Assembly: GCA_050115675.1 (NCBI GenBank) | Contig: JASFQB010000005.1 | Coordinates: 88,556-127,392 of the forward strand | Source of the DNA: Candidatus Woesebacteria bacterium | Lineage (GTDB): Bacteria > Patescibacteriota > Saccharimonadia > Saccharimonadales > EFPC-124 | Direction of reading: 5' to 3' | Length of the DNA: 38,837 bases | Shown: positions 2,336 through 37,615 of the stretch, one piece after another | How positions within the stretch are numbered: position 1 is the stretch's first letter | How the letters are laid out: each line of letters starts with the position of its first letter | The notes under the pieces: generated by a model | What the model saw: the letters and a program-made list of their open reading frames with translations, nothing else | Databases searched by the model: none | Told to the model about the DNA's origin: nothing | Position numbers and translations under genes: made by a program

Positions 2336-5300
2336 ATGACTAAGCCGCCAATGGGTCCAAGCCCGTCTAATTCAGAACTACTACCACATGGCGAGTATCT
2401 ACATGAGGGGCGCCTTAAAATTGTTATTGCAGGACTTGATAAAAACGTGCGGGCCCATGCAATGGAGGCGGCTAATCAAAGGCTTTCTGATAAACTGGGC
2501 GAGAATGGTTTTAAGGGGTTTTTGAATAAAATTTGGCACGGTGGTTTTGCGCGTGAGCATTATTTGCTAAAGTATGCAAAAGAGGCAAAAGCAGATATTG
2601 TTGAGTCTGATAATTTATTTGAAAACGAAGGCTTAAGCGCGGAAGAGTACAAAGTTGCAACAACTTTACGCTTTGCCCATGAATATGACGGTCTTGTCCA
2701 TGAAGAAGTTGGTGAGCATAGACACGTAGTTGATCGAAATGAAGACGGTTCTGTAGATGTTGAGGGGTACGAGCTTAAGCATCACCTTTTTGATCTTGTG
2801 AGTCAATATGCGGCTGGTGAATTTGATGGTCCAACCCCTGACGATACTGAACGAAACTTTAACGAAGAGGCGAGTCGTCTTATAACTGAGCTTATTGAGC
2901 GAGGGGTGATTTCTAAGGACCATGTGGGTGAGGCCAGGGTTAGGCTAGATAATTTGTATCAAGTTAGTCAGAATGTGCGTGTAATGGTTGATCATGGAGT
3001 TGGTCTTGATGAGATCGCTCACAATACAGACATCGTGCTTGGAGAGGCTAAGGTGGGGGCAAGAACCGAAGCTGATACTACTCGAGCCGAGAGGATGGTC
3101 GAGAAGCTGTCAGGCAAAGCTTGGATAAATGAGGGTACAGTTATACCTGCCGTTACGATTGCTATGAGTACGGCCAATTTTGCTGCAAAGGCTGGGGCAA
3201 GTGCAGCCGTTGCAGCTGTTGCTGGTATTGCTGTTCCCGGAGCATTGGCCGGTGTTTGGGCGGGAATGCGCGAGTCGGCTAGGTCAAAAAGAGAACTTAC
3301 TGAGCTTAAGAGGGGTATTGAAACGGGAAAAATAGAAAACCCAGAGTCTAGTATTATGCGTTCGGCAGAATCCCTTATAGACCAGTTAGGCGTTCTTTAC
3401 GATGACAATGGTGAGCTTAGGATAAGCGACGAAGATAGTATGTACGGAGTGTTGGCGACGATTGCTGAATGCGATTCTCGTATTTATCTTACAAATGTTA
3501 GCGAGCCGTTAATATCTGATGCCTCTGAAATGGATCGTTATGATCTTTATGTTGCTTTGGCAAAGGCAAAGAGTGATGTGGCTGACTTTATTCAGATGTC
3601 AAGTGATTCTCAACTTAGACAATTGGGCTATGATGACGTTGCGATTGCAGAACTTAGGCAGAGTGATGATTTAGTAGATGCAATTTTGGCTCCGTATATT
3701 GATGCCGAGGATGGTGTTTTAAGTAAAGAGATTACAAGTAATGCGCGCTTAGAGCGCAAAGCTCATCTGAAAAGAGTGGGGCTTGCGGCTCTCCAGGGGT
3801 CCGCGTTAGGAATATTTGCTGGTGGTGTCTCGCAAGAGCTTTACTCTTTGATGAACGATGAGATTCAGGGTGTTGTCGAGGGGAGATTAAATGCTAACTC
3901 TGATGCCAGGCAGACATTTTATCAGAACTTTATGGGTCGTGGCGAGGGCTCACATGAGGCTTTTGCGGATTTAACTAACTCTAATCGTACTGAATCTATT
4001 GGTTCTAGAGTGAATATCCAATTGCCGGAGGGGTTCAGTTTTGTTCGAGAGGGAGATGTGGCAACAGTAACGGGTCTAGATGGTTTTCGTGTTGAAAATC
4101 TATCCTTAACTGAAGATGGTCATTTTACTCCTGCTGCCGAACAAGCACTTGCTTCAAAAGGACTAAACCTAATAAGGTTCGAAGATATTTCGCCTGTAAA
4201 TGTCGAAAAAGAAACCGTAGTTTCGGCCAGAGAGTTTTTAGACAATCATCAAGATAATGTAACAAAAGTAACGCGCGATTTTTGGTACACAAATGCCATA
4301 GAAGGGCGTGCTGATGGTGCAGAATTGGGTATTAGCCAGGTGCGCGTAGATGCTGACGGCAATTATGTCGTTGATTTATCTGGCATGGGCGAAAAATCTT
4401 TTACATCCAATGGTCAAGAAGTTGACTGGCGGCAAGCGGCAAGCGAAGGTAAGCTATCTTTGGTTCTAAGTGCATCCAGCGGGAGTCAGTCGGAAGCTAT
4501 TATGCTAGACATTGATCCGTCGGGTCCTGTTGTTGTTGACAAGGATAGCTTTGCGGCTTCGATGTTTAGCCAACATGATGGCGAAGCAGCGATTAAGGGT
4601 AAGTTTTTGGAAGTGGTTGAGGTTGCTGGTCAAGATGAAGATGGAGTTACGCATATACGGCCTTTGGCTACTGCCGTTGGCGAGGGAGCTGACGTTTTTC
4701 AGGATAAGCTGCAAGTTGTTGAAAACGTGCAGTCTACTTTGTATAGTGCGGAGTATACTGCCCCTGAAGGCAATGCATCGCAAGTTGCTATTCCGTATGT
4801 TTTGCCTGTTTCTATGACGGGCTGGCAGCCGAGTCTAGGTAGGCGCAAGGAGTCTGGTCAGCCACTGACTACCGAAAACTCTAGAACTGAGCCTTACGAT
4901 AACGAGGCTTATAAATCTATGCCTAATGGCTTTGATAATGAGAATTATTTTGGGACTGAGTTTGATAACTTTGAAGACGATGACTTTGATAACGAAGCTC
5001 GGGCAGAGGCAGAGGCAAAAGTAGAAACAAAAACGCCCGAGGCAAACCACCAGTCTGTAAATGTTCCTGAGCTGGTTGTAGAGTTGCCTCCAGATAAATT
5101 CCAGCCTGCTGAGAATTTTAGGCAGCAATGGGAGTTTGAGATGTCTCCTACTTTGGAAGAAAATCCCGATGCGCAATTAGATATTAACGAAGAACTAGAT
5201 CGTTACATAGCCGACCAAGTAATAAGACATGGTCGTGAGTATGCAAATAATATTGAGAGTCAAAATAATACAATTGGCCTAAGTGAGCTCATTACTTCTG

Positions 5301-6709
5301 ATACTGAAGCAATTGTCTGCGCAAAGATCGAGGTGAGTGACAGCGGCATTCCTATTCGCGACATTGTATCTGCATATGCAAGGCAGGGCGAGGAGGCTGT
5401 GAGTAAGTCAGTATTTTTGATTGATATTGCATGGTCTGCTGATGTTAGCTCCGATGAGGATGCTGCAGCGTTGTTTTCTAGGGTTAATTCTGAGTTTGTG
5501 CGTGCGCGAGCTGAGTTTCCAAGCCTTAAAGTTACCGCTTATGCTAGGGACTGGCATGAGCGTGGCTCAATGACAGAGAATGAACACGCAAAAGAACGCT
5601 ACGACGTGGCTGCATTTGCAGCAGAAGCAGCTATAAGTGCTGGAAAACAGAACTCACTTGGTGATCTGTTGATAGTCTCAAACGACGCCAATGCTACAAG
5701 CATACCTGCAGACTACCTAGGCTCTTATATTAAGGAATTTGAAGCAAATCCAGAAACAGACGTCTTTACGGGAGCTTATGTAAGACAGGGAGCTGCCACT
5801 CCGGACTATCCTGGCTATGATGTAGTTATGTCGTTTTTGTCTAATTTAGAGGTTGAGCATCAGCAAGACAATCCGGCAATGACTGGATACGTTATACAAA
5901 ATGGATCAAACATGGCGTTTAGAATGTCAGCATATGCCGCAGTAGGTGGTTGTGCGGGCGAGGCTGTTAGGGCAGACGACGAGATCTGCCAAAGGGTAGT
6001 TAACGCTCGTCAGGGGTCAATTGGCGGTAGGCCTGTTGTGCAGCACGTTGCGGATGCGCAAGTTACCGCTACGCTTGAAACTGATGAATCGTTAGAGCAG
6101 TATAGGCGTGGCAATTGGGTTGCAGAGCCAGTATACGCTGGTGAGCAAAATGGTGCAATGATCAACGCAGAAGACCCGCAAAGCGATCTTAGCGGCATAG
6201 TTGACCGTATTGAGCTCAACGTAAACTCGTACATTGCTAACATACCTAGCAAGCCTGAAATTGTCGAGGATGCCTTGGTTAAGACGTTTGGCCCAATAAG
6301 TGGAAGTAAGGCGGCCTTTGTAATGCGTTGGAGTAGGGATTATACTAAGGCGCAATTTAATTTAACAAATATTGGTCGTCAGATGTTGTTGCAAAAGTTG
6401 ACTAATCCGAACACCGAGGAACCTGCAGAGTTGCCCACAGTGGAGTCTGTTGCAAATGGTGGTGTCGAAATAGAAAATAGCGAGATTACTCCTAGTGTAC
6501 CAAGCGTCAAGCCTAAAATTGGCGATATTTTGGTGTCTTCCTCTGGCATGCGTCTTAAGATAGATGGCACCGATGGTCGTGGCATGACTTGGTTTAAGTC
6601 GCTTATGCCAGACAATATTACGCCTTATCCTACACAGCCCCAAATTCGAGTTAACGAGCGTAAATTATCAGACATGTTAGTTTCGGGCGAATATAAAGTT
6701 TTGCGATAA
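2336..6709 (+). CDS. Giant multidomain protein: Gly/Ala-rich hydrophobic segments, beta-rich middle, acidic linker, degenerate GT2/GT-A-like domain
   Basis: Uninterrupted 1457-aa ORF. Hydrophobic segments at about 3140-3268 and 3776-3829. GT-A-like motifs LLIVSNDANATSIPADYL and GSNMAFRMSAYAAVGG. Confidence 0.7.
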   Translation: MTKPPMGPSPSNSELLPHGEYLHEGRLKIVIAGLDKNVRAHAMEAANQRLSDKLGENGFKGFLNKIWHGGFAREHYLLKYAKEAKADIVESDNLFENEGLSAEEYKVATTLRFAHEYDGLVHEEVGEHRHVVDRNEDGSVDVEGYELKHHLFDLVSQYAAGEFDGPTPDDTERNFNEEASRLITELIERGVISKDHVGEARVRLDNLYQVSQNVRVMVDHGVGLDEIAHNTDIVLGEAKVGARTEADTTRAERMVEKLSGKAWINEGTVIPAVTIAMSTANFAAKAGASAAVAAVAGIAVPGALAGVWAGMRESARSKRELTELKRGIETGKIENPESSIMRSAESLIDQLGVLYDDNGELRISDEDSMYGVLATIAECDSRIYLTNVSEPLISDASEMDRYDLYVALAKAKSDVADFIQMSSDSQLRQLGYDDVAIAELRQSDDLVDAILAPYIDAEDGVLSKEITSNARLERKAHLKRVGLAALQGSALGIFAGGVSQELYSLMNDEIQGVVEGRLNANSDARQTFYQNFMGRGEGSHEAFADLTNSNRTESIGSRVNIQLPEGFSFVREGDVATVTGLDGFRVENLSLTEDGHFTPAAEQALASKGLNLIRFEDISPVNVEKETVVSAREFLDNHQDNVTKVTRDFWYTNAIEGRADGAELGISQVRVDADGNYVVDLSGMGEKSFTSNGQEVDWRQAASEGKLSLVLSASSGSQSEAIMLDIDPSGPVVVDKDSFAASMFSQHDGEAAIKGKFLEVVEVAGQDEDGVTHIRPLATAVGEGADVFQDKLQVVENVQSTLYSAEYTAPEGNASQVAIPYVLPVSMTGWQPSLGRRKESGQPLTTENSRTEPYDNEAYKSMPNGFDNENYFGTEFDNFEDDDFDNEARAEAEAKVETKTPEANHQSVNVPELVVELPPDKFQPAENFRQQWEFEMSPTLEENPDAQLDINEELDRYIADQVIRHGREYANNIESQNNTIGLSELITSDTEAIVCAKIEVSDSGIPIRDIVSAYARQGEEAVSKSVFLIDIAWSADVSSDEDAAALFSRVNSEFVRARAEFPSLKVTAYARDWHERGSMTENEHAKERYDVAAFAAEAAISAGKQNSLGDLLIVSNDANATSIPADYLGSYIKEFEANPETDVFTGAYVRQGAATPDYPGYDVVMSFLSNLEVEHQQDNPAMTGYVIQNGSNMAFRMSAYAAVGGCAGEAVRADDEICQRVVNARQGSIGGRPVVQHVADAQVTATLETDESLEQYRRGNWVAEPVYAGEQNGAMINAEDPQSDLSGIVDRIELNVNSYIANIPSKPEIVEDALVKTFGPISGSKAAFVMRWSRDYTKAQFNLTNIGRQMLLQKLTNPNTEEPAELPTVESVANGGVEIENSEITPSVPSVKPKIGDILVSSSGMRLKIDGTDGRGMTWFKSLMPDNITPYPTQPQIRVNERKLSDMLVSGEYKVLR

Positions 6710-17947: not shown

Positions 17948-18409
17948 ATGAAGTGTCCACACTGCCAACAAGCCGAAACTAAGGTAATTGAATCTCGAGA
18001 TGTTGCGAATGGGGAGAGCATTCGCAGGCGGCGAGAATGCTTAGTTTGCCAATATCGTTTTACTACATACGAAAGATTGGAAAGACCTAGCATAACTGTT
18101 ATCAAAAAGGATGGCACTCGGCAAATGTATGATCGTGCAAAACTTGTAACAGGTTTACAAAAAGCGTGTGAGAAGACAAAAATAACAGGGGCAAAGTTTG
18201 AAGAATTGGTAGCGCAAGTTGAAAAAGATATCTACGATTGTGGTGATGCGGAGATATGTTCTGAAAGAGTAGGCTCAATTATAATGGGTGTTCTTGCGCG
18301 CACTGACCAGATTGCATATGTGCGATTTGCCAGTGTTTACCGAAATTTTACAGACTTAGAAAGTTTAGAAAAAGAGCTTTCAAGATTAAAAATGCGCTGT
18401 ATTCCTTAG
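17948..18409 (+). CDS. nrdR: Transcriptional repressor NrdR
   Basis: MKCPHC..KVIESR..IRRRRECLVC..RFTTYE Zn ribbon, ATP cone, AYVRFASVYR. Confidence 0.98.
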   Translation: MKCPHCQQAETKVIESRDVANGESIRRRRECLVCQYRFTTYERLERPSITVIKKDGTRQMYDRAKLVTGLQKACEKTKITGAKFEELVAQVEKDIYDCGDAEICSERVGSIIMGVLARTDQIAYVRFASVYRNFTDLESLEKELSRLKMRCIP

Positions 18410-18524
18410 CTAGTACTAAAAATAAAACAAAAAATCACGACTGTTTTGATTTGATTTGCCATGTGCTGGAGGGTAGATGGCAAGCTTATCTTAGGCTTTT
18501 GTGGTAAACAATTAAGGAGGGTAT

Positions 18525-21296
18525 GTGGCCATGGCGCAAAATACGGCAGCGCTTAAATTAAAGCGGCATTTTACAGAGGAAGATACGCATCCATACGACA
18601 TGCTGAGGTGGGTGACCACGGACTCAAAAATTACCAATCCAGGCACAGGAGAAACTGTTTTTGAGCAAAAACAGGTAAGCTTTCCGGATACCTGGAGTCA
18701 GAACGCAATAAACATTGTGGCTCAAAAGTATTTTTATGGCACCCCTGGTACGAATCAGCGGGAGTCGTCGTTGAAGCACCTTATTAACAGAGTAGCTGAT
18801 ACGATAACTACGCATGGTTTAGAGCAGGGTTATTTTATTGACGAAGGCGAATCTAAAATTTTTAGCGATGAGCTTAAGTACGTTTTAGCTACACAGCGCG
18901 CAGCATTTAACTCGCCCGTTTGGTTTAATATTGGTGCCCCTGATCGTGCACAGCAGGCTAGTGCGTGCTTTATCTTGAAGGTAGAGGATAGCTTGCCTTC
19001 TATTTTAAACTGGTACCGCGAAGAGGGAATGATTTTTAAGGGAGGCTCTGGTGCTGGCTTAAACATAAGTGAGATCCGATCATCCTACGAGCGGCTAAGT
19101 GGTAGTGGAGGAAAGGCTTCTGGTCCAGTTAGCTTTATGCGTGGCGCAGACGCATCCGCCGGTACTATTGCCAGTGGCGGCAAGACCCGTCGTGCCGCAA
19201 AAATGGTTATTTTAAACATTGATCACCCTGATGTAGAGAAGTTTATTTGGTGTAAGGCTCGCGAAGAGCGCAAGTCTCGCGTGCTAAAAGAAGCAGGCTT
19301 TGACATGGGGCTTAATGGTGAGGATGCGATTTCTATTCAGTACCAAAATGCTAACAACTCCGTACGCGTAACAGATGACTTTATGCGCGCAGTAGAAAGC
19401 GACGATGATTGGGGCTTAGTAGGCGTAAAAGACAAAAAAGTCTACAAAACAACGCGCGCTAAAGATTTGTTTCGTCAAATTGCCGAAGCTGCATGGGAAT
19501 GCGCTGATCCAGGTATGCAGTTTGACACAACTGTTAATGACTGGAATACAACTCCAAAAGCTGGTAAAATTAATGGCTCAAACCCCTGTTCTGAGTACAT
19601 GCACCTGGATAACACTGCATGTAACCTGGCCAGTTTAAACCTGCTTAAATTCTTAAATGACGATGGAAGTTTTGATTTTGAAGGCTTTAAGCATGTAACC
19701 CAAATTATATTTTTGTCGCAAGAAATACTGGTTGGTTATTCTAGCTATCCTACAGAGTCGATTGATAAGGGTGCGCGTGCGTACCGCGAACTAGGAATTG
19801 GTTATGCCAACTTGGGCGCAATGCTAATGGCTCGCGGTTTGCCGTACGACAGCGACGAAGGTCGTGCGTTGGCCGCTGCTGTAACTGCTTTGCTAACTGG
19901 ATATTCGTATGCAACAAGCGCCAAGATTGCAAAACGTGTGGGCTCGTTTGCGGGATATCACAAAGACAAAGAGGGTGCAATTCGCGTACTTAAAAAACAT
20001 CGCAATGCTGTTGATGACATAAACTCAAAATATGTTGAGAAAGACTTGCTAAAAGCTGTGTCCGAGGTTTGGAACGAGGCTGTAGAGCTTGCCGAAATGT
20101 ACGGAGTGCGCAACGCCCAGGCATCTGTTTTGGCACCCACGGGCACAATTGGTTTAATGATGGACTGCGACACTACCGGTGTTGAGCCTGATTTTGCGTT
20201 GATTAAGCACAAAAACTTAGTTGGCGGTGGCTCTATGGCGATTGTTAACCAAACGGTTTCGCGTGCGCTTAAAACTTTGGATTACAACAAAGAACATAGT
20301 AAAGAAATTGTTGATTACATTCACGAGCACAACACAATTGTGGGCGCCCCGCATCTTAAAGATGAGCACCTTGGCGTGTTTGCCTGTGCAGTTGGTCAAA
20401 ATTCAATTCATTATTTGGGCCATGTTAAGATGATGTCTGCGGTCCAGCCGTTTATATCTGGTGCAATTAGCAAAACTGTCAACATGCCACAAGAAGCAAG
20501 CGTAGAAGATGTTGAACAGCTTCATATGGATGCATGGAAGATGGGAATTAAGGCTATTGCAATTTATCGCGACGGTAGTAAAGTGGGACAGCCTTTAAGT
20601 AGTAAAAAGCAAAAAGAGGCAGCCAAAAAAGATGCACCTCAACAAGAGCCGGTGGTAAGTTTGCCGGTAGTAGTAAAAGGCGCAGTTAAGCGGGAGTTGC
20701 CACGAATTAGAAACAGTCGGACTTTTGAATTCCACGTTAGCGACTTAAAGGGTTATGTAACGGTTGGCGAATACGAAGACGGTACTCCTGGCGAAGTGTT
20801 CTTTAGGATCTCAAAACAAGGATCAACCTTGTCTGGAATAATGGATAGTTTGGCAATTAGCGTTAGCCATGGCTTGCAATACGGTGTACCTCTAAAGAGT
20901 TACGCCAAGGCAATGATTAATACAAGTTATGCGCCGGCTGGCATTACGGATGATCCAGAAATCCGAACGGCTTCAAGCATCACAGACTATATCTTTCGTC
21001 GTTTAGCGCTAGAGTACCTAAATTTTGACGACAGGCTAGAGTTGGGGTTGGCATCTTTTGATGATCTTGAGGCAGAAACTCAAGCAAATCAAATAAGTTT
21101 ACTTGAGCAGCCGGTCGTTGGTCAAAAAAACACACCAATTTTAGAGCAAAAAACTGTAGAAGTTAAAATGGCAACGGCGAAGATCGAAGTTAGTGCTTCG
21201 GATTCACCATTGTGCAGTAATTGCGGAAACATCACAAAACCGTCTGGTAGTTGTCATGTTTGCACAAGTTGTGGTTCTACTACAGGTTGCAGCTAA
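18525..21296 (+). CDS. nrdJ: Class II (adenosylcobalamin-dependent) ribonucleotide reductase
   Basis: FNSPVWFN, SACFI, NPCSEY, APTGTI, GAISKTVN, YRDGSK and a C-terminal Cys-rich tail. SD AAGGAGG at 18514-20; start is GTG 18525 or ATG 18531. Confidence 0.96.
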   Translation: MAMAQNTAALKLKRHFTEEDTHPYDMLRWVTTDSKITNPGTGETVFEQKQVSFPDTWSQNAINIVAQKYFYGTPGTNQRESSLKHLINRVADTITTHGLEQGYFIDEGESKIFSDELKYVLATQRAAFNSPVWFNIGAPDRAQQASACFILKVEDSLPSILNWYREEGMIFKGGSGAGLNISEIRSSYERLSGSGGKASGPVSFMRGADASAGTIASGGKTRRAAKMVILNIDHPDVEKFIWCKAREERKSRVLKEAGFDMGLNGEDAISIQYQNANNSVRVTDDFMRAVESDDDWGLVGVKDKKVYKTTRAKDLFRQIAEAAWECADPGMQFDTTVNDWNTTPKAGKINGSNPCSEYMHLDNTACNLASLNLLKFLNDDGSFDFEGFKHVTQIIFLSQEILVGYSSYPTESIDKGARAYRELGIGYANLGAMLMARGLPYDSDEGRALAAAVTALLTGYSYATSAKIAKRVGSFAGYHKDKEGAIRVLKKHRNAVDDINSKYVEKDLLKAVSEVWNEAVELAEMYGVRNAQASVLAPTGTIGLMMDCDTTGVEPDFALIKHKNLVGGGSMAIVNQTVSRALKTLDYNKEHSKEIVDYIHEHNTIVGAPHLKDEHLGVFACAVGQNSIHYLGHVKMMSAVQPFISGAISKTVNMPQEASVEDVEQLHMDAWKMGIKAIAIYRDGSKVGQPLSSKKQKEAAKKDAPQQEPVVSLPVVVKGAVKRELPRIRNSRTFEFHVSDLKGYVTVGEYEDGTPGEVFFRISKQGSTLSGIMDSLAISVSHGLQYGVPLKSYAKAMINTSYAPAGITDDPEIRTASSITDYIFRRLALEYLNFDDRLELGLASFDDLEAETQANQISLLEQPVVGQKNTPILEQKTVEVKMATAKIEVSASDSPLCSNCGNITKPSGSCHVCTSCGSTTGCS

Positions 21297-22091: not shown

Positions 22092-22120
22092 GTAAGTTAT
22101 TTTATGTCGTTTTTTGCCTC

Positions 22121-22149
22121 TTGCCAATCTCTATTTTTGTGGTTATAAT
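22121..22149 (+). promoter_or_regulatory. Sigma70-type promoter of the ileS leader
   Basis: TTGCCA(22121-26)-N17-TATAAT(22144-49). Confidence 0.8.
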
Positions 22150-22155
22150 TACGCT

Positions 22156-22370
22156 ATACATGCGCTCTAGCTTGGCTAGATTAGCGGTTATCAGCCGTAA
22201 AGCAGCAAGAAGAAATTACCCTAAAAGGTAAAATTAGACCTTGACGGACAAGCGACCCGTAAGATTGCAAAATAAGCGCTAAAAGAGTCATCTCTTTTGG
22301 AAACCGGATGGTACCGCCCGTATGGGTTCCGGTAGACAAAAGTGATGACTTTTATTATTTAGGAGTAAAA
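22156..22370 (+). ncRNA. T-box riboswitch (ileS, ultrashort Stem I, probably translational)
   Basis: Discriminator domain ACCGGA-[UGGUACC]-GCCC-GUAU-GGGU-UCCGGU (22303-22333). Stem III AAAAGAG-UCAU-CUCUUUU (22281-98). Stem I GCGGUU-AUC-AGCCGU with the Ile codon in the loop (22190-92). Stem II and IIA-like hairpins lie between. No GC-rich terminator before SD AGGAG (22361-65). Confidence 0.88.
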
Positions 22371-25238
22371 ATGTCAGAGGTTAAAAAGTCTCAACTAGCC
22401 CAAGCCGAAGAAGAAGTGATGGCTTTATGGCGCCAAGAAGACACATTTAAAAAAAGTTTAGACAACCGCAAAGATGGTCCAGTTTTTAGTTTTTACGACG
22501 GGCCGCCATTTGCAAACGGTTTGCCGCATTTTGGACATAGTTTGGTGACCAGCATCAAAGACTCTTTTGGGCGTTACAAAACTATGCGCGGATATTACGT
22601 TCCGCGCCGTAACGGGTGGGACTGTCACGGTTTGCCGGTAGAATTTGCCATAGAAAAAGAATTTGACGTAAGCGGCAAAAAGCAAATTTTAGATTTAGGT
22701 CTAGACAAATTTAACCACGCCTGTCGCGACTCGGTGTTCAAATACAAAGGTGAGTGGGAAGGTTTTTTTGAGCGCATTGGCCGCTGGACCGATACCGAAC
22801 ACGCCTATGCCACCATAAATCGTGACTACACAGAAAGCGTTTGGTGGGTAATGAAGCAAGTCCACGACAAAGACCTTTTGTACAAAGGTTACAAAAGTAT
22901 GCCGTACTGCCCGCGCTGCGCCACGCCGCTGTCTAACTTTGAGCTTAACGAAGGCTACCGCGACAACGTGCCGGACCCAAGCTTGTTTGTTAAATTTAAA
23001 CTTGCTGACGAAGACGCATATTTGCTGGGCTGGACAACTACCCCGTGGAGCTTGCCAGGTAACGCCGCAATAGCCGTAAATCCGCACGAGCAATACGTTT
23101 ATGTAGAAACCGATGGGCAAGTGCTAATTTTAGCCAAAAAACGCCTAGAGGCCGTAATGAAAGACGAGCGTCAATTTAAAGTCTTAAAAGAGGTAGAAGC
23201 AGCCGAACTAGTTGGTAAAAAATACCTACCGTTGTTTGAGCTAGATAATTTGCAAAATCTTGCAGGTCACGAAAACTTTTATAAAATTTGGCCAGCAGAT
23301 TTTGTAAGTGTTGATGACGGTACTGGTGTTTTGCACGTTGCGCCAGCATTTGGTGAGGACGACCTAAAACTAGGGCAAGAAAATAACATTCCCGTCAGAA
23401 AAACCGTTGACGAAGCCGGAAAAATGATGGACGACATTGGCTTTGCAGACATCGCAGGCATGTTCTTTAAAAAGGCCGACCAACATGTAATTGAGCATCT
23501 ATCTAAACAAGGTTATGTTTTTGCGGCGGAGACTTTTGAGCACACATATCCGTTTTGTTACAGATGTGACAGTCCGTTATTTTACTACTCAATCAATACT
23601 TGGTTTGTGCGTGTTTCGGCAATTAAAAAACAATTGCTAAAAACCGCTCAAGAAATTAATTGGACGCCAGAACACATTAAAGAAGGTCGCTTTGGTAAGT
23701 GGCTGGCTGGCGCGCGTGACTGGGCGATTAGCCGCAATCGTTATTGGGGCGCACCAATGCCAGTTTGGGCAAATGTGGAAGACGAGAACGACTACATTGT
23801 GATTGGAAGCATTGACGAGCTTAAGACTTTGGCAGGTGACGATATTGATGTTACAGATTTGCATCGCCCAAATATCGACCAAATTACCTTTACTAAAGAT
23901 GGCAAAACTTACAAGCGTATCGAAGAAGTAATTGACTGCTGGTTCGAATCTGGCAGCATGCCCGTCGCGCAGCAGCACTATCCGTTTGAAAACAAAGAGG
24001 TTTTTGAAAAATCTTTCCCAGCAGATTACATTGGCGAAGGCCTAGATCAAACGCGCCTATGGTTTTACGTTCAACACGTAATTGCCACAATTTTATTTGA
24101 CCGCCCAGCGTACAAAAACGTTGTTGTAAACGGAATGATAATGGCGGCAGACGGACAAAAATTAAGCAAGCGGCTTAAAAACTATCCGCCAGTTGACGAT
24201 GTATTTTCTACCGAAGGCGCAGACACTTTGCGCATGTATCTTTTGAGCAGCACGCAGGCAACCGTAAGTGCAGACTATATGCGCTTTAGCCGCGACGCCA
24301 TGAAGGATCTAAACCGCAATGTGTTTGGGCGCTTGCAAAACAGCTACCGTTTTTACAAAATGTACGCCGACATTGACGGCTTTAAGCACGAGGGCGAACT
24401 GACCGATCCACAAAGCGAAAATCCGTTAGACACATGGATGGTTTCTAGAGTAAATCAGGCCGTTGCCGAGGCTACTCGCCAGGCAGATGACTTTAAAATT
24501 GCCCATGCAATTGCACCAATTTATGCGTTAATAGACGACATGTCAAACTGGTTTATTCGGCGTAGCCGCCGCCGTTTTTGGAAGAGTGATGACGATGGAG
24601 ACAAGCAATCCGCTTACCAAACCTTGCACTTTACGCTAGTGCGAACCTGTCAGCTTCTGGCACCGTGGGCTCCATTTTTAAGCGACAAATTGTATCGCGA
24701 GCTAATGAACGGGCAATCCGTACATCTTAGTAGCTGGCCAGAGGTGGGTGAGGTAAGCCAAAATGTTGTTGACGATATGGCGCGTGCTCGCGACTATATA
24801 AACGAAGGTTTAAGCCAGCGTGCTGCTGCAAAAATTAAGGTTCGACAACCGCTTACTGGCGTTATCGTTCCGCAATTACCAGAAGAGTACAAAGATGTTT
24901 TGGCAGACGAGCTAAACGTTAAAGAGGTAAAATGGGGCGACCAAGTTGGGTTGGACACAAACATTACTCCCGAGCTAAAAGCCGAAGGCCTAATGCGTGA
25001 CGTAATTAGATGTGTTCAAAACGCCCGAAAACAAGCGGACTTGCAGGTTGATGACCGAATAAAACTTGGCCTAAAAACAGACGACTCCGAACTTGCTGCG
25101 GCAATAAGAACTCACCAGCAAACCATAATGGCAGAAACCTTAGCAGCTCAACTTACGACTGACGCAGATTTTGAACACAAGTTACAAGTAAAAATTGAAG
25201 GTGTTTTGTTAGATATCTCGTTAGAAACTTTAAAATAG
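22371..25238 (+). CDS. ileS: Isoleucyl-tRNA synthetase, type 2
   Basis: DGPPFANGLPHFGH, GWDCHGLPVE, WTTTPW, WAISRNRYWG, KLSKR; no C-terminal Zn-binding motif. True start is ATG 22371 behind AGGAG; the ORF-track start 22308 lies inside the T-box. Confidence 0.97.
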   Translation: MSEVKKSQLAQAEEEVMALWRQEDTFKKSLDNRKDGPVFSFYDGPPFANGLPHFGHSLVTSIKDSFGRYKTMRGYYVPRRNGWDCHGLPVEFAIEKEFDVSGKKQILDLGLDKFNHACRDSVFKYKGEWEGFFERIGRWTDTEHAYATINRDYTESVWWVMKQVHDKDLLYKGYKSMPYCPRCATPLSNFELNEGYRDNVPDPSLFVKFKLADEDAYLLGWTTTPWSLPGNAAIAVNPHEQYVYVETDGQVLILAKKRLEAVMKDERQFKVLKEVEAAELVGKKYLPLFELDNLQNLAGHENFYKIWPADFVSVDDGTGVLHVAPAFGEDDLKLGQENNIPVRKTVDEAGKMMDDIGFADIAGMFFKKADQHVIEHLSKQGYVFAAETFEHTYPFCYRCDSPLFYYSINTWFVRVSAIKKQLLKTAQEINWTPEHIKEGRFGKWLAGARDWAISRNRYWGAPMPVWANVEDENDYIVIGSIDELKTLAGDDIDVTDLHRPNIDQITFTKDGKTYKRIEEVIDCWFESGSMPVAQQHYPFENKEVFEKSFPADYIGEGLDQTRLWFYVQHVIATILFDRPAYKNVVVNGMIMAADGQKLSKRLKNYPPVDDVFSTEGADTLRMYLLSSTQATVSADYMRFSRDAMKDLNRNVFGRLQNSYRFYKMYADIDGFKHEGELTDPQSENPLDTWMVSRVNQAVAEATRQADDFKIAHAIAPIYALIDDMSNWFIRRSRRRFWKSDDDGDKQSAYQTLHFTLVRTCQLLAPWAPFLSDKLYRELMNGQSVHLSSWPEVGEVSQNVVDDMARARDYINEGLSQRAAAKIKVRQPLTGVIVPQLPEEYKDVLADELNVKEVKWGDQVGLDTNITPELKAEGLMRDVIRCVQNARKQADLQVDDRIKLGLKTDDSELAAAIRTHQQTIMAETLAAQLTTDADFEHKLQVKIEGVLLDISLETLK

Positions 25239-35477: not shown

Positions 35478-35768
35478 CTATTTACCGACGTTGAGTTGGA
35501 ATCTGGAGCTGTACCAAGACTCATTATTCGACGGCTCCCTCCCCGTAGCCCCATGATCACAAACCTTCACAGCCCCAGCTTCTATTAAGCTTTTTTCTAT
35601 TGGCTTAGCAACTTCCTCAGCTCTGTTAGTAGCAAAAGGGTTGCCGTTAAACGCTATGGTTAAGAATCCCCAATACACCAACCAACCCACAACAACAGGC
35701 ACTAATACTATTAATAGTATCTTGAACGAACACTTTAAAATATTTTGTATAGGTTTACTTTTTATCAT
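35478..35768 (-). pseudogene. Array paralog A, C-terminally truncated membrane-anchored protein
   Basis: 96 aa versus 189-191 aa for its paralogs; ends QLNVGK* where paralog B continues QLNVGKDQ. Confidence 0.75.
35560..35629. repeat. 70-bp direct repeat shared by paralogs A and C (copy 2 at 36778-36847)
   Basis: Manual alignment gives 69/70 identical. Confidence 0.9.
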
Positions 35769-35786
35769 GTTGTTGGTGATTATATA
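35665..35786. repeat. 122-bp direct repeat, copy 1 (copy 2 at 37512-37633)
   Basis: Manual alignment gives 121/122 identical. Covers the -10 box, start codon and N-terminal/TM coding region of paralogs A and D. Confidence 0.92.
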
Positions 35787-35805
35787 CCAAGTAGGGTGGT
35801 TGGGG

Positions 35806-36381
35806 CTATTTTTTACGTTCAGGTAGGCTTATACCCAAAGATATAGCAGTATGAGTATCATCGCCAATTAAGTACATACCGTTGCTACAAGATATCTTAC
35901 TTCTGTCTGTGTTGACATGTAAGCTCACTCCCAACTCAATATCCCCCTCCGCTAAATCACCATACGTACTAGGTTTGCGTGCTCCAAAGTTAAGAATAGA
36001 GTCGTAATAGTAATAGCTTAAATCATCTTGGCGCTCTAGATTATACTCATTATCCGCTGCCACTTTTTTAACAATCTCTATAGCCTGATCTTTACCGACG
36101 TTGAGTTGGTAGTAACCGGAGTAGTACGGAGTGCGTGTGTTCAAAGAACTCGTCCCATTACTCTCATTGTCACAAACTTTTGTAGCTCCAGCTGCAAGCA
36201 ATGATTTTTCTATGGGTGTTGCTGCGTCTTTGGCAGGATTGGAGATGAAAGGGTTATTGAATTGTAAAGAAAAAACAAAGACCGCCATGCAAACAACGGA
36301 TACTGTAATCGCAAGCGACAGAGAAACGACACTTATTGGTGTTTTTAAACTAAACTTTTTTAAGGATTGATCTTTTTTCAT
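35806..36381 (-). CDS. Array paralog B, membrane-anchored exported protein
   Basis: Basic N-terminus, TM helix, NPF..N.A...A.PIEKSL..AGA.KVC core, second Cys, C-terminal SLPERKK. Confidence 0.8.
   Translation of the reverse strand: MKKDQSLKKFSLKTPISVVSLSLAITVSVVCMAVFVFSLQFNNPFISNPAKDAATPIEKSLLAAGATKVCDNESNGTSSLNTRTPYYSGYYQLNVGKDQAIEIVKKVAADNEYNLERQDDLSYYYYDSILNFGARKPSTYGDLAEGDIELGVSLHVNTDRSKISCSNGMYLIGDDTHTAISLGISLPERKK
36172..36243. repeat. 72-bp direct repeat shared by paralogs B and D (copy 2 at 37406-37477)
   Basis: Manual alignment gives 72/72 identical, with further similarity on both flanks. Confidence 0.9.
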
Positions 36382-36413
36382 ATTATCTAAGAGTAGAAGG
36401 AGGTGATTTGAGG

Positions 36414-36983
36414 TTATTTTTTACGTTCGGGTAGGCTTACAGACAGCCCGAAAGTAGTACTGCCATCCTCCAGCCCGTCCGCATTAGTTTGGGCGCAATT
36501 TCCATTAGAGGCGGATACGTCATAATGTGTAAGTAAGTTAATGTTAAAAGCTATCCCTATGTCTCCGTTGTCAAGATTGGAGTATTCACTAGTCTTGCTT
36601 GCGCCAGCGTAGGAATAATAATCGTTTTCTTGCGTAAAGGCATCAAGGATATATCCATTATCCTTGGCTGCGGTGGATACTGTCTCTTGAGTTTCTTCCA
36701 CTGTGCCGTCAATTTTAAACGTTGCACTATACCAAGGTATTCTATTTGTAGCTTCGTATCCAGTGGCTCCTCTGCTGCAAACCTTCACAGCCCCAGCTTC
36801 TATTAAGCTTTTTTCTATTGGCTTAGCAACTTCCTCGGCTCTGTTAGATACAAAAGGATTATTATACTGTAAAAATAATGACACAAAAGGAGTAATCACA
36901 ATAACAGCAAGAACACACGTAGTAATTACTACAGCTCTACCTATTGAGGTTTTTAAAATTGGTGTGGTTAGTGGGTTTTTCAT
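36414..36983 (-). CDS. Array paralog C, membrane-anchored exported protein
   Basis: Same architecture; core NRAEEVAKPIEKSLIEAGAVKVC; C-terminal SLPERKK. Confidence 0.8.
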   Translation of the reverse strand: MKNPLTTPILKTSIGRAVVITTCVLAVIVITPFVSLFLQYNNPFVSNRAEEVAKPIEKSLIEAGAVKVCSRGATGYEATNRIPWYSATFKIDGTVEETQETVSTAAKDNGYILDAFTQENDYYSYAGASKTSEYSNLDNGDIGIAFNINLLTHYDVSASNGNCAQTNADGLEDGSTTFGLSVSLPERKK

Positions 36984-37039
36984 AGTGTCTAGGTTTAAGA
37001 GGGAGTGCTTTGGTTAGGGCTAAATTTGATTTGATAGAA

Positions 37040-37615
37040 TTACTTTCTGGGAGGAAACGACAAAGTAAGTCTAACGCCAGTATGATTAGTATCCCCAACT
37101 AGATTAATTGGACTACCTCCACTAAATGGACATGGCAAGTTCTTAGCCTCAGTGTTCGTATATAAATCTATAGACAATCTTTCGTCACCTTCTTTGAGAT
37201 CTTTATCTATACTCGATCGCGTGCCATCGTAGCTAAATACAGATTCGTAAAGCTGCGCACCAAGACTTAAGCTAAAACCACTATCCTTTGTAGCTTTCGT
37301 TATTTCGCTATAGACTTGGTCTTTACCGACATTGAATTGGTAGTAACCTGAGTAATACGGTGTATGCGTATTATCCAAAGGATTCGTCCCATTACTCTCA
37401 CTACTACAAACTTTTGTAGCTCCAGCTGCAAGCAATGATTTTTCTATGGGTGTTGCTGCGTCTTTGGCAGGATTGGAAATGAAAGGATTATCACTAGACA
37501 CGGCAAATACAAATCCCCAATACACCAACCAACCCACAACAACAGGCACTAATACTATTAATAGTATCTTGAACGAACACTTTAAAATATTTTGTATAGG
37601 CTTACTTTTTATCAT
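37040..37615 (-). CDS. Array paralog D, membrane-anchored exported protein
   Basis: Same architecture; core NPAKDAATPIEKSLLAAGATKVC; C-terminal SFPPRK. Confidence 0.8.
   Translation of the reverse strand: MIKSKPIQNILKCSFKILLIVLVPVVVGWLVYWGFVFAVSSDNPFISNPAKDAATPIEKSLLAAGATKVCSSESNGTNPLDNTHTPYYSGYYQFNVGKDQVYSEITKATKDSGFSLSLGAQLYESVFSYDGTRSSIDKDLKEGDERLSIDLYTNTEAKNLPCPFSGGSPINLVGDTNHTGVRLTLSFPPRK

Follow-up and report, generated by a model that had tools for sequence, protein, structure and literature searches.

An ultrashort-Stem-I T-box leader upstream of ileS in a Saccharibacterium, with a probable transcriptional output through Stem III

The closest described relatives of the leader studied here are the actinobacterial ileS T-boxes, for which structures from Mycobacterium tuberculosis (PDB 6UFG) and Nocardia farcinica (PDB 6UFM) are given in the available part of PMC7583486. 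According to that part, transcriptional T-boxes generally need an elbow-binding platform, or long Stem I, and the tRNA end cannot be bound without Stem III and its purine string. In the available part of PMC12647780, Stem III is described as undocking when the tRNA is charged. The accessible portion of the TBDB paper (10.1101/2020.06.17.157016) lists Firmicutes, Actinobacteria, Chloroflexi and Deinococcus-Thermus as ancestral T-box carriers. No report of T-boxes in Saccharibacteria, the candidate phyla radiation (CPR) or Patescibacteria was found in a literature search that subscription papers and the TBDB table lay outside, and neither a Stem III terminator nor an ultrashort T-box for an amino acid other than Ile is described in the titles and abstracts searched.

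The window, i.e., the whole 38,837-nt stretch of DNA analysed, comes from a genome of 1.18 Mb. The leader lies between a divergent NUDIX gene and ileS (22371..25238, + strand, 955 aa), which encodes a type-2 (MupA/MupB-like subfamily) isoleucyl-tRNA synthetase (IleRS) and is identified by TIGR00392 with 869 bits against a cut-off of 621. A sigma-70-type promoter-like element, TTGCCA-17-TATAAT (22121..22149, +), agrees with the consensus at 11 of 12 positions and would place the transcription start near 22156; the promoter scan is weak alone, as it found 4 sites against 2.1 in shuffles, and similar -10 boxes are seen by eye upstream of homologous leaders. The -35 boxes of this promoter and of the NUDIX gene promoter on the opposite strand overlap in a near-palindromic TTGCCAA (22121-27, within 22099-22149). 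Elsewhere in the window, a 1457-aa ORF (2336-6709) has no NCBIfam or Pfam match, neighbouring ORFs of about 190 aa at 35478-37615 match no family, and nrdR adjoins a vitamin B12-dependent ribonucleotide reductase (17948-21296); a cobalamin riboswitch was not found in the window at the Rfam cut-off, nor were tRNA genes found within it.

All the leader parts named in an earlier note on this DNA are present, on the + strand. The ultrashort Stem I spans 22161..22204 and consists of a lower pairing of UGC 22161-63 with GCA 22202-04, assigned by eye, an extra hairpin within the 5' strand of that lower part (22166-80), and an upper helix GCGG/CCGU (22184-87/22195-98), which is 100% paired in 21 aligned leaders of relatives. 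Its apical loop carries the specifier AUC, for Ile, at 22190..22192; AUC is found in 97/97 matches of the covariance model R1 described below, a model itself trained on AUC leaders. The four-pair helix and the AUC of the earlier drawing of this stem hold, whereas the two extra pairs that it placed around a 3-nt loop are not conserved, the loop in relatives having 7 nt (YYAUCAM). The K-turn region of Stem I is degenerate in the source leader, with UA/AA plus the inserted hairpin where many relatives have GA/GA. The source leader has no interdigitated T-loop platform and bears its specifier in the apical loop, the arrangement that defines an ultrashort Stem I.

Stem II (22206..22243, +) pairs 22206-09 with 22240-43 and 22216-20 with 22227-31 around an S-turn (AAGAAA / AAUUAGAC), whose strings AGAA and UAGA are invariant in 21/21 aligned leaders; the position of its bulged G is a U in the source leader. 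The region 22244..22268 holds Stem IIA (22244-47/22257-60, +; 87% paired in the alignment) and a candidate IIB pseudoknot (22252-55/22265-68, +), for which four pairs are possible and only 48% pair in the MAFFT alignment. Within 22274..22302 follow the purine string AAGCG (22274-78, +), of the form RRRxG found in 83/94 leaders, and Stem III (22279-87/22292-300, +) with loop UCAU, flanked by an AA that is present in 91/94. The A1/A2 domain (22303..22333) comprises helix A1 (22303-08/22328-33, +; 97% paired), the T-box bulge UGGUACC (22309-15, +; the same in 88/97 leaders) and helix A2 (22316-19/22324-27, +; 96% paired), at whose base G22316 and U22327 form a wobble pair, G-U in 17/21 rows of the hand-set alignment and in 51/97 of the model alignment. 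A Shine-Dalgarno (SD)-like AGGAG lies at 22361..22365 (+). The earlier note does not list the IIB candidate, the purine string, the hairpin inserted in lower Stem I, or the arm and U-tract described below, which together with Stem III give a terminator-like helix.

These parts agree with one another in the way the earlier note had proposed: AUC is an Ile codon, the bulge UGGU is complementary to the ACCA in which the source genome's tRNA-Ile(GAU) gene ends, and the downstream gene is ileS. Its reading of the element as an ultrashort-Stem-I, Ile-specific T-box upstream of ileS in a Saccharibacterium is likewise upheld, the closest named IleRS relatives being Saccharibacteria/Saccharimonadia in a pattern-limited search with 0/77 actinobacterial loci. 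A match to a covariance model, which the note had proposed as a check, was obtained in part: RF00230 matches 22178-22334 with 34.2 bits (E 6.5e-6), a score under the gathering cut-off of 93 bits, and the alignment deletes the model's long Stem I. At gathering scores Rfam gives 0 matches in the whole window; SAM-II and snoRNA matches, with E about 6, were dismissed as chance.

The relatives compared are kin and not independent samples. A motif search over 30 ileS loci, from the source genome and its relatives, recovered 23 leaders, of which 21 were aligned and two omitted for long insertions. In these 21, 88% of the cells of a hand-set structure of 36 pairs can pair, against 75% after column shuffling and 31-47% in slid controls, and two-sided changes occur at 27/36 pairs. 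Stem I, Stem II, the base of Stem III, A1 and A2 are each 88-100% paired, with two-sided changes. The source leader has a folding z of -3.5, and 0/200 shuffles are as stable. Long hairpin insertions, possibly mobile repeats, occur in the A2 loop or Stem II of six leaders (L012, L015, L159, L162, L345 and L348), the first two being those omitted from the alignment.

The model R1, built from the aligned leaders, matches 109/121 genomes of the class Saccharimonadia and 62/150 genomes of a phylum sample (55/142 outside the order), counts that refer to T-boxes of any specificity and not to ultrashort ones only, some of them controlling other synthetases. R1 is indeed not specific for a short Stem I, as it matches 32/61 Bacillota genomes at 27-61 bits, and all 12 of the 12 Bacillota matches inspected are long-stem T-boxes. 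In the source genome, RF00230 and R1 each match the ileS leader only, and T-boxes upstream of valS, thrS and aspS were not seen by eye.

Sixty-six R1 matches were read by eye; 52 came from other classes of Patescibacteria, 11 were secondary matches within the class, and 3 belonged to the order. In 56 of them a short hairpin has, at the end of its loop, a codon that fits the synthetase encoded downstream: AUC with ileS in 21, GUC with valS in 15, GAC or AAC with aspS in 13, ACN with thrS in 6 and GGC with glyS in 1. The others comprise a single thrS leader whose Stem I is long and nine leaders left unassigned. Thirteen of the synthetase genes were confirmed with NCBIfam; the remaining ones, glyS included, carry putative names based on N-terminal motifs. 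A script that is blind to the gene recovered the cognate codon in 39/61 cases, and most of its misses chose another hairpin. Among the 61 assigned matches, the bulge reads UGGU for Ile in 20/21 and for Val in 16/16, UGGA for Thr in 10/10 and for Gly in 1/1, and UGGC for Asp in 9/13. The discriminators of the source genome's tRNAs (U for Thr, G for Asp, A for Ile and Val) match the fourth bulge base, which in these sequences tracks the tRNA discriminator.

Agreement between specifier and gene is a classic comparative sign of function, and what the leaders compose, as judged by sequence comparison, is a lineage-wide, multi-amino-acid T-box family in Patescibacteria with five synthetase types. 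Ultrashort T-boxes for Val, Asp/Asn, Thr and Gly were noted at loci L145, L150, L152-155, L160, L165, L170-188 and L333-352. Stem II is reduced or missing in Thr leaders, and four leaders of the aspS type read AAC (Asn) and not GAC. The long Stem I of the one exceptional thrS leader (L349) is Bacillota-like, so that both types of Stem I occur in the phylum.

Given the agreement of specifier and gene across the family and the covariation, the T-box is judged genuine, and the ileS leader is almost certainly a functional Ile T-box, for which tRNA binding is predicted. The alternative that it is a decayed relic without function, or a recent, host-derived passenger of ileS, is very improbable. Decay is what the degenerate GA pairs of the K-turn and the U in place of the S-turn G would suggest for the source copy, yet the core positions are intact and covarying, and in the available part of PMC7583486 the G-to-U change in the S-turn bulge weakens binding by only 2.4-fold. 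A passenger might be expected from the single IleRS subfamily that actinomycetes and CPR share; against this, as against a relic, stands an element that occurs across the class at the frequency given above and lies upstream of three IleRS clades within one family, and a clade formed by the query and actinomycetes is rejected in the trees described further on.

With regard to output, folding points to a terminator nested on Stem III. The segment 22270-22340 folds into Stem III plus A1/A2 at -23.2 kcal/mol (the ON fold). Folding to 22360 yields -33.9 kcal/mol (z -5.4; the OFF fold): A1/A2 are kept, and a terminator arm (22337..22353, +) pairs with 22283-22299, covering the Stem III loop and 3' strand, in a helix around the intact A1/A2 domain that ends on UUUUAUUAUUU. 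The two folds are mutually exclusive as computed, and in prefix folding, prefixes that end at 22346 or earlier take the ON fold and those that reach 22351 take the OFF fold. The last G-C pair of the OFF helix is immediately followed by a U-rich tract (22350..22360, +; 9 U in 11 nt), which is interrupted (UUUUAUUA), and the terminator loop is a folded domain of roughly 37 nt, which is unusual. The OFF fold is the more stable by 10.7 kcal/mol in the source leader, with a median of 10.4 across leaders. Such a difference implies that the switch must be kinetic, with tRNA binding that is fast without an elbow-binding platform.

The same architecture recurs in relatives. R1 matched 97 of 100 Saccharimonadia loci, which had been picked near ileS or from earlier matches and include the 21 training rows. 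Fold classes were counted from the R1 alignment, a regex-based classification having missed some leaders and taken false ones, and they comprise 81 nested, 7 canonical and 9 other leaders. In 92/97 leaders the OFF helix has a U-tract no more than 3 nt away, whereas a similar test on ordinary source-genome genes with an SD finds a helix plus U-tract in 24/268, and U-rich stretches alone upstream of 51/268. The OFF fold loses all Stem III pairs in 73/80 nested leaders. The Stem III region of these leaders forms a duplex of median -13.8 kcal/mol with its own arm, against -6.1 with swapped and -5.1 with shuffled arms. The own arm is the single best partner in only 25/80 swaps and among the top five in 58/80, a ranking to which sequence shared among relatives contributes. 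In the MAFFT alignment, where this region is variable, pairing of the enclosing helix reaches only 75%. Even where the start codon lies at a distance, the U-tract remains beside the helix, and the same tract is present in relatives whose terminator is of the ordinary type. Nested terminators are not confined to the class (e.g., family f51).

The source genome encodes nusA, no match to rho over the cut-off was found in it, and terminator-like sites follow 63/466 of its gene ends, compared with 16-28 in shuffled and 33 in reversed sequence. At seven loci (L007, L143, L151, L162, L174, L343 and L347), at least one unrelated small gene lies between T-box and synthetase, which fits control at the operon level, i.e., transcriptional control.

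Based on these folds, we consider transcription termination the likely output, and attenuation of transcription by a switch in Stem III the best reading, one that is rather probable. That Stem III is indispensable for binding the tRNA end and undocks with charged tRNA makes it plausible as a switch. During transcription, Stem III and A1/A2 would form first, as computed. By analogy with the solved actinobacterial structures, the AUC of the Stem I loop would pair with the GAU anticodon and the Stem II S-turn would latch onto the tRNA. The uncharged ACCA end may then pair with UGGU, and the docked purine string would lock Stem III. With charged tRNA or none, the emerging arm 22337-53 would nucleate on the Stem III loop (UCAU with AUGA) and displace the 5' strand of Stem III, giving a 16-bp helix around intact A1/A2, which is computed and covarying, and RNA polymerase would presumably release at the U-tract.

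Three other outputs have to be weighed against attenuation through Stem III. The earlier note had assumed translational control as in Actinobacteria, in which case the OFF fold would hinder ribosome loading at AGGAG. The aptamer does match the actinobacterial one, to the extent that a Tsukamurella leader scores 41 bits with R1; the OFF helix stops about 8 nt short of the SD, whose first bases a marginal extension (22279-83/22358-62) can cover; and members of a GC-rich CPR family (L157, L161 and L164) lack a U-tract and have a hairpin over GAGG. In the source leader, however, the SD lies outside the main OFF helix, which ends on a U-tract, and folding yields no sequestrator from the A1/A2 3' strand over the SD. 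The SD is also not more open in the ON state: its unpaired probability is 0.10-0.29 when the ON fold is imposed and 0.18-0.92 in the unconstrained ensemble, where OFF dominates, which is the opposite of what an ON switch requires. As the U-tract is, moreover, tied to the helix at the frequency given above, compared with 0/13 actinobacterial-type leaders in the regex-based classification, translational control is unlikely here. Among GC-rich CPR ileS leaders, five (L156, L157, L161, L164 and L168, from families f55 and f77) are mostly without a U-tract; the three with a hairpin over GAGG are probably translational, which would make a third output for the same aptamer.

In a canonical transcriptional switch, the 3' strand of A1/A2 would find its new partner downstream, and the pairing with Stem III would have no role. 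Many other CPR leaders fold in this way, as do the 12 Bacillota controls, read by eye, and the seven canonical leaders of the class. For the source leader such a switch is highly unlikely, as the best fold of this type, from 22320 onward, reaches only -6.1 kcal/mol, A1/A2 stay fully paired in the -33.9 kcal/mol fold, and the arm is complementary to the leader's own Stem III. The enclosing helix might instead stabilise the RNA, take part in its turnover or mark a pause, with regulation through decay or in a mixed mode, and the interrupted U-tract and the large enclosed loop would suit such a role. Yet the terminator geometry, a last G-C pair followed by U's, is alike in nested and canonical versions, and the helix destroys a part that is needed for tRNA binding; we regard this option as improbable. 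Attenuation through Stem III remains our preferred reading of the platform.

As regards origin, the earlier note had raised possible acquisition from the host lineage together with ileS, which, as a recent event, is contradicted. The two observations that the note itself would count against host transfer, an element widespread in CPR and an IleRS that does not group with Actinobacteria, have largely been made. Besides the T-box matches throughout the class and beyond the order, the query IleRS falls in a Saccharimonadia clade with full support, in a FastTree phylogeny of 109 rows and in an IQ-TREE (LG+G4) phylogeny of 55 rows, from which the E. coli outgroup, four divergent CPR rows and some others had been removed. 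A tree constrained to place the query and its nearest relative with the actinomycete IleRS is rejected (AU p about 1e-100), the actinomycete group consisting of two named records plus metagenome relatives. On these comparisons the element looks native to its lineage and recent host transfer is rejected; an ancient exchange with Actinobacteria, in either direction, is possible.

In the 55-row tree, the actinomycete IleRS stand beside another Saccharimonadia clade (support 93/99), a placement that hints at transfer from CPR to actinomycetes. A nesting of the actinomycete IleRS within Saccharimonadia was considered and is not established, given that neither CPR monophyly (p 0.195) nor a grouping of clade A with actinomycetes (p 0.122) is rejected. 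In a 257-row tree, unlabelled sequences and one protein labelled Alphaproteobacteria intervene, and Borrelia belongs to the same subfamily. The IleRS2 groups concerned are L189, L273 and L193-L272 on the actinomycete side, and L305, L306, L309 and L011-L021 on the Saccharimonadia side.

Three IleRS2 clades, with about 42%, 50% and 70% identity to the query, occur in one family under the same leader (L002-L030), even within a single genus, g9. This suggests replacement of the IleRS gene beneath a fixed T-box. An ultrashort T-box seemingly without Stem IIA/B was also observed in Nonomuraea (L274:600-800), upstream of a different type of IleRS. The three clades and the Nonomuraea case together indicate that leader and gene are not inherited as one unit. 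Taken alone, the existence in Patescibacteria of a multi-amino-acid, transcriptional, Stem III-switching class of ultrashort T-boxes has, in our estimate, slightly better than an even chance. That Patescibacteria are the home of the ultrashort-Stem-I T-box, with the actinomycete ileS T-box and its IleRS an old offshoot from an epibiont lineage, is quite doubtful, and reverse transfer is the weak link of that reading.

A Stem III terminator of this kind would break two rules found in reviews, namely the dependence of transcriptional T-boxes on a long Stem I and the building of the terminator out of antiterminator 3' strands, and an RNA of roughly 200 nt would allow both to be tested in one single-round transcription assay. 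The natural Val, Asp/Asn, Thr and Gly variants show how a minimal anticodon reader may be re-specified, and they would widen a T-box toolkit that, in the portion of the literature available, is small and rests on Ile examples. The family would also represent amino-acid-responsive gene control in host-dependent CPR bacteria, missed by Rfam at its cut-off, and CPR would join the ancestral carriers that TBDB lists.

In comparison with known systems, the leader shares with the actinobacterial ileS T-boxes (6UFG, 6UFM and Tsukamurella) the AUC apical loop, a 4-bp upper Stem I, the lack of elbow-binding T-loops, the Stem II S-turn, Stem IIA with a candidate IIB pairing, the RRRxG-Stem III-AA arrangement, the UGGUACC bulge and ileS as the regulated gene. 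It differs in a Stem I loop of 7 nt instead of 6, in the hairpin inserted in lower Stem I, and in its predicted U-tract terminator on Stem III, whereas the actinobacterial leaders are translational, with an SD sequestrator from the A1/A2 3' strand and no U-tract. Specifiers for Val, Asp/Asn, Thr and Gly occur in the CPR family besides Ile, while actinobacterial T-boxes occur only upstream of ileS in the part of PMC1262725 available.

With the transcriptional T-boxes of Bacillota (RF00230; B. subtilis glyQS and tyrS), the discriminator domain, the G-U wobble at the A2 base, a U-tract output, aminoacyl-tRNA synthetase genes as targets and the use of several specifiers are held in common. In the Bacillota leaders Stem I is long and bears an AG-box and T-loops (12/12 controls), which the source leader does not have, and their terminator takes the A1/A2 3' strands, according to the available parts of PMC7583486 and PMC10907184, whereas in the fold predicted here A1/A2 are kept and it is Stem III that supplies the strand. 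A ligand-protected helix contested by a downstream strand that nucleates on a toehold is also the principle of strand-exchange platforms, as described in the accessible part of PMC10907184; here a tRNA would serve as the ligand and Stem III as the invaded helix, and the available portions of the reviews do not present Stem III as a switching strand. Altogether, the ileS leader is a variant of the well-known T-box family that combines an actinobacterial-type aptamer with a probable transcriptional output via Stem III.
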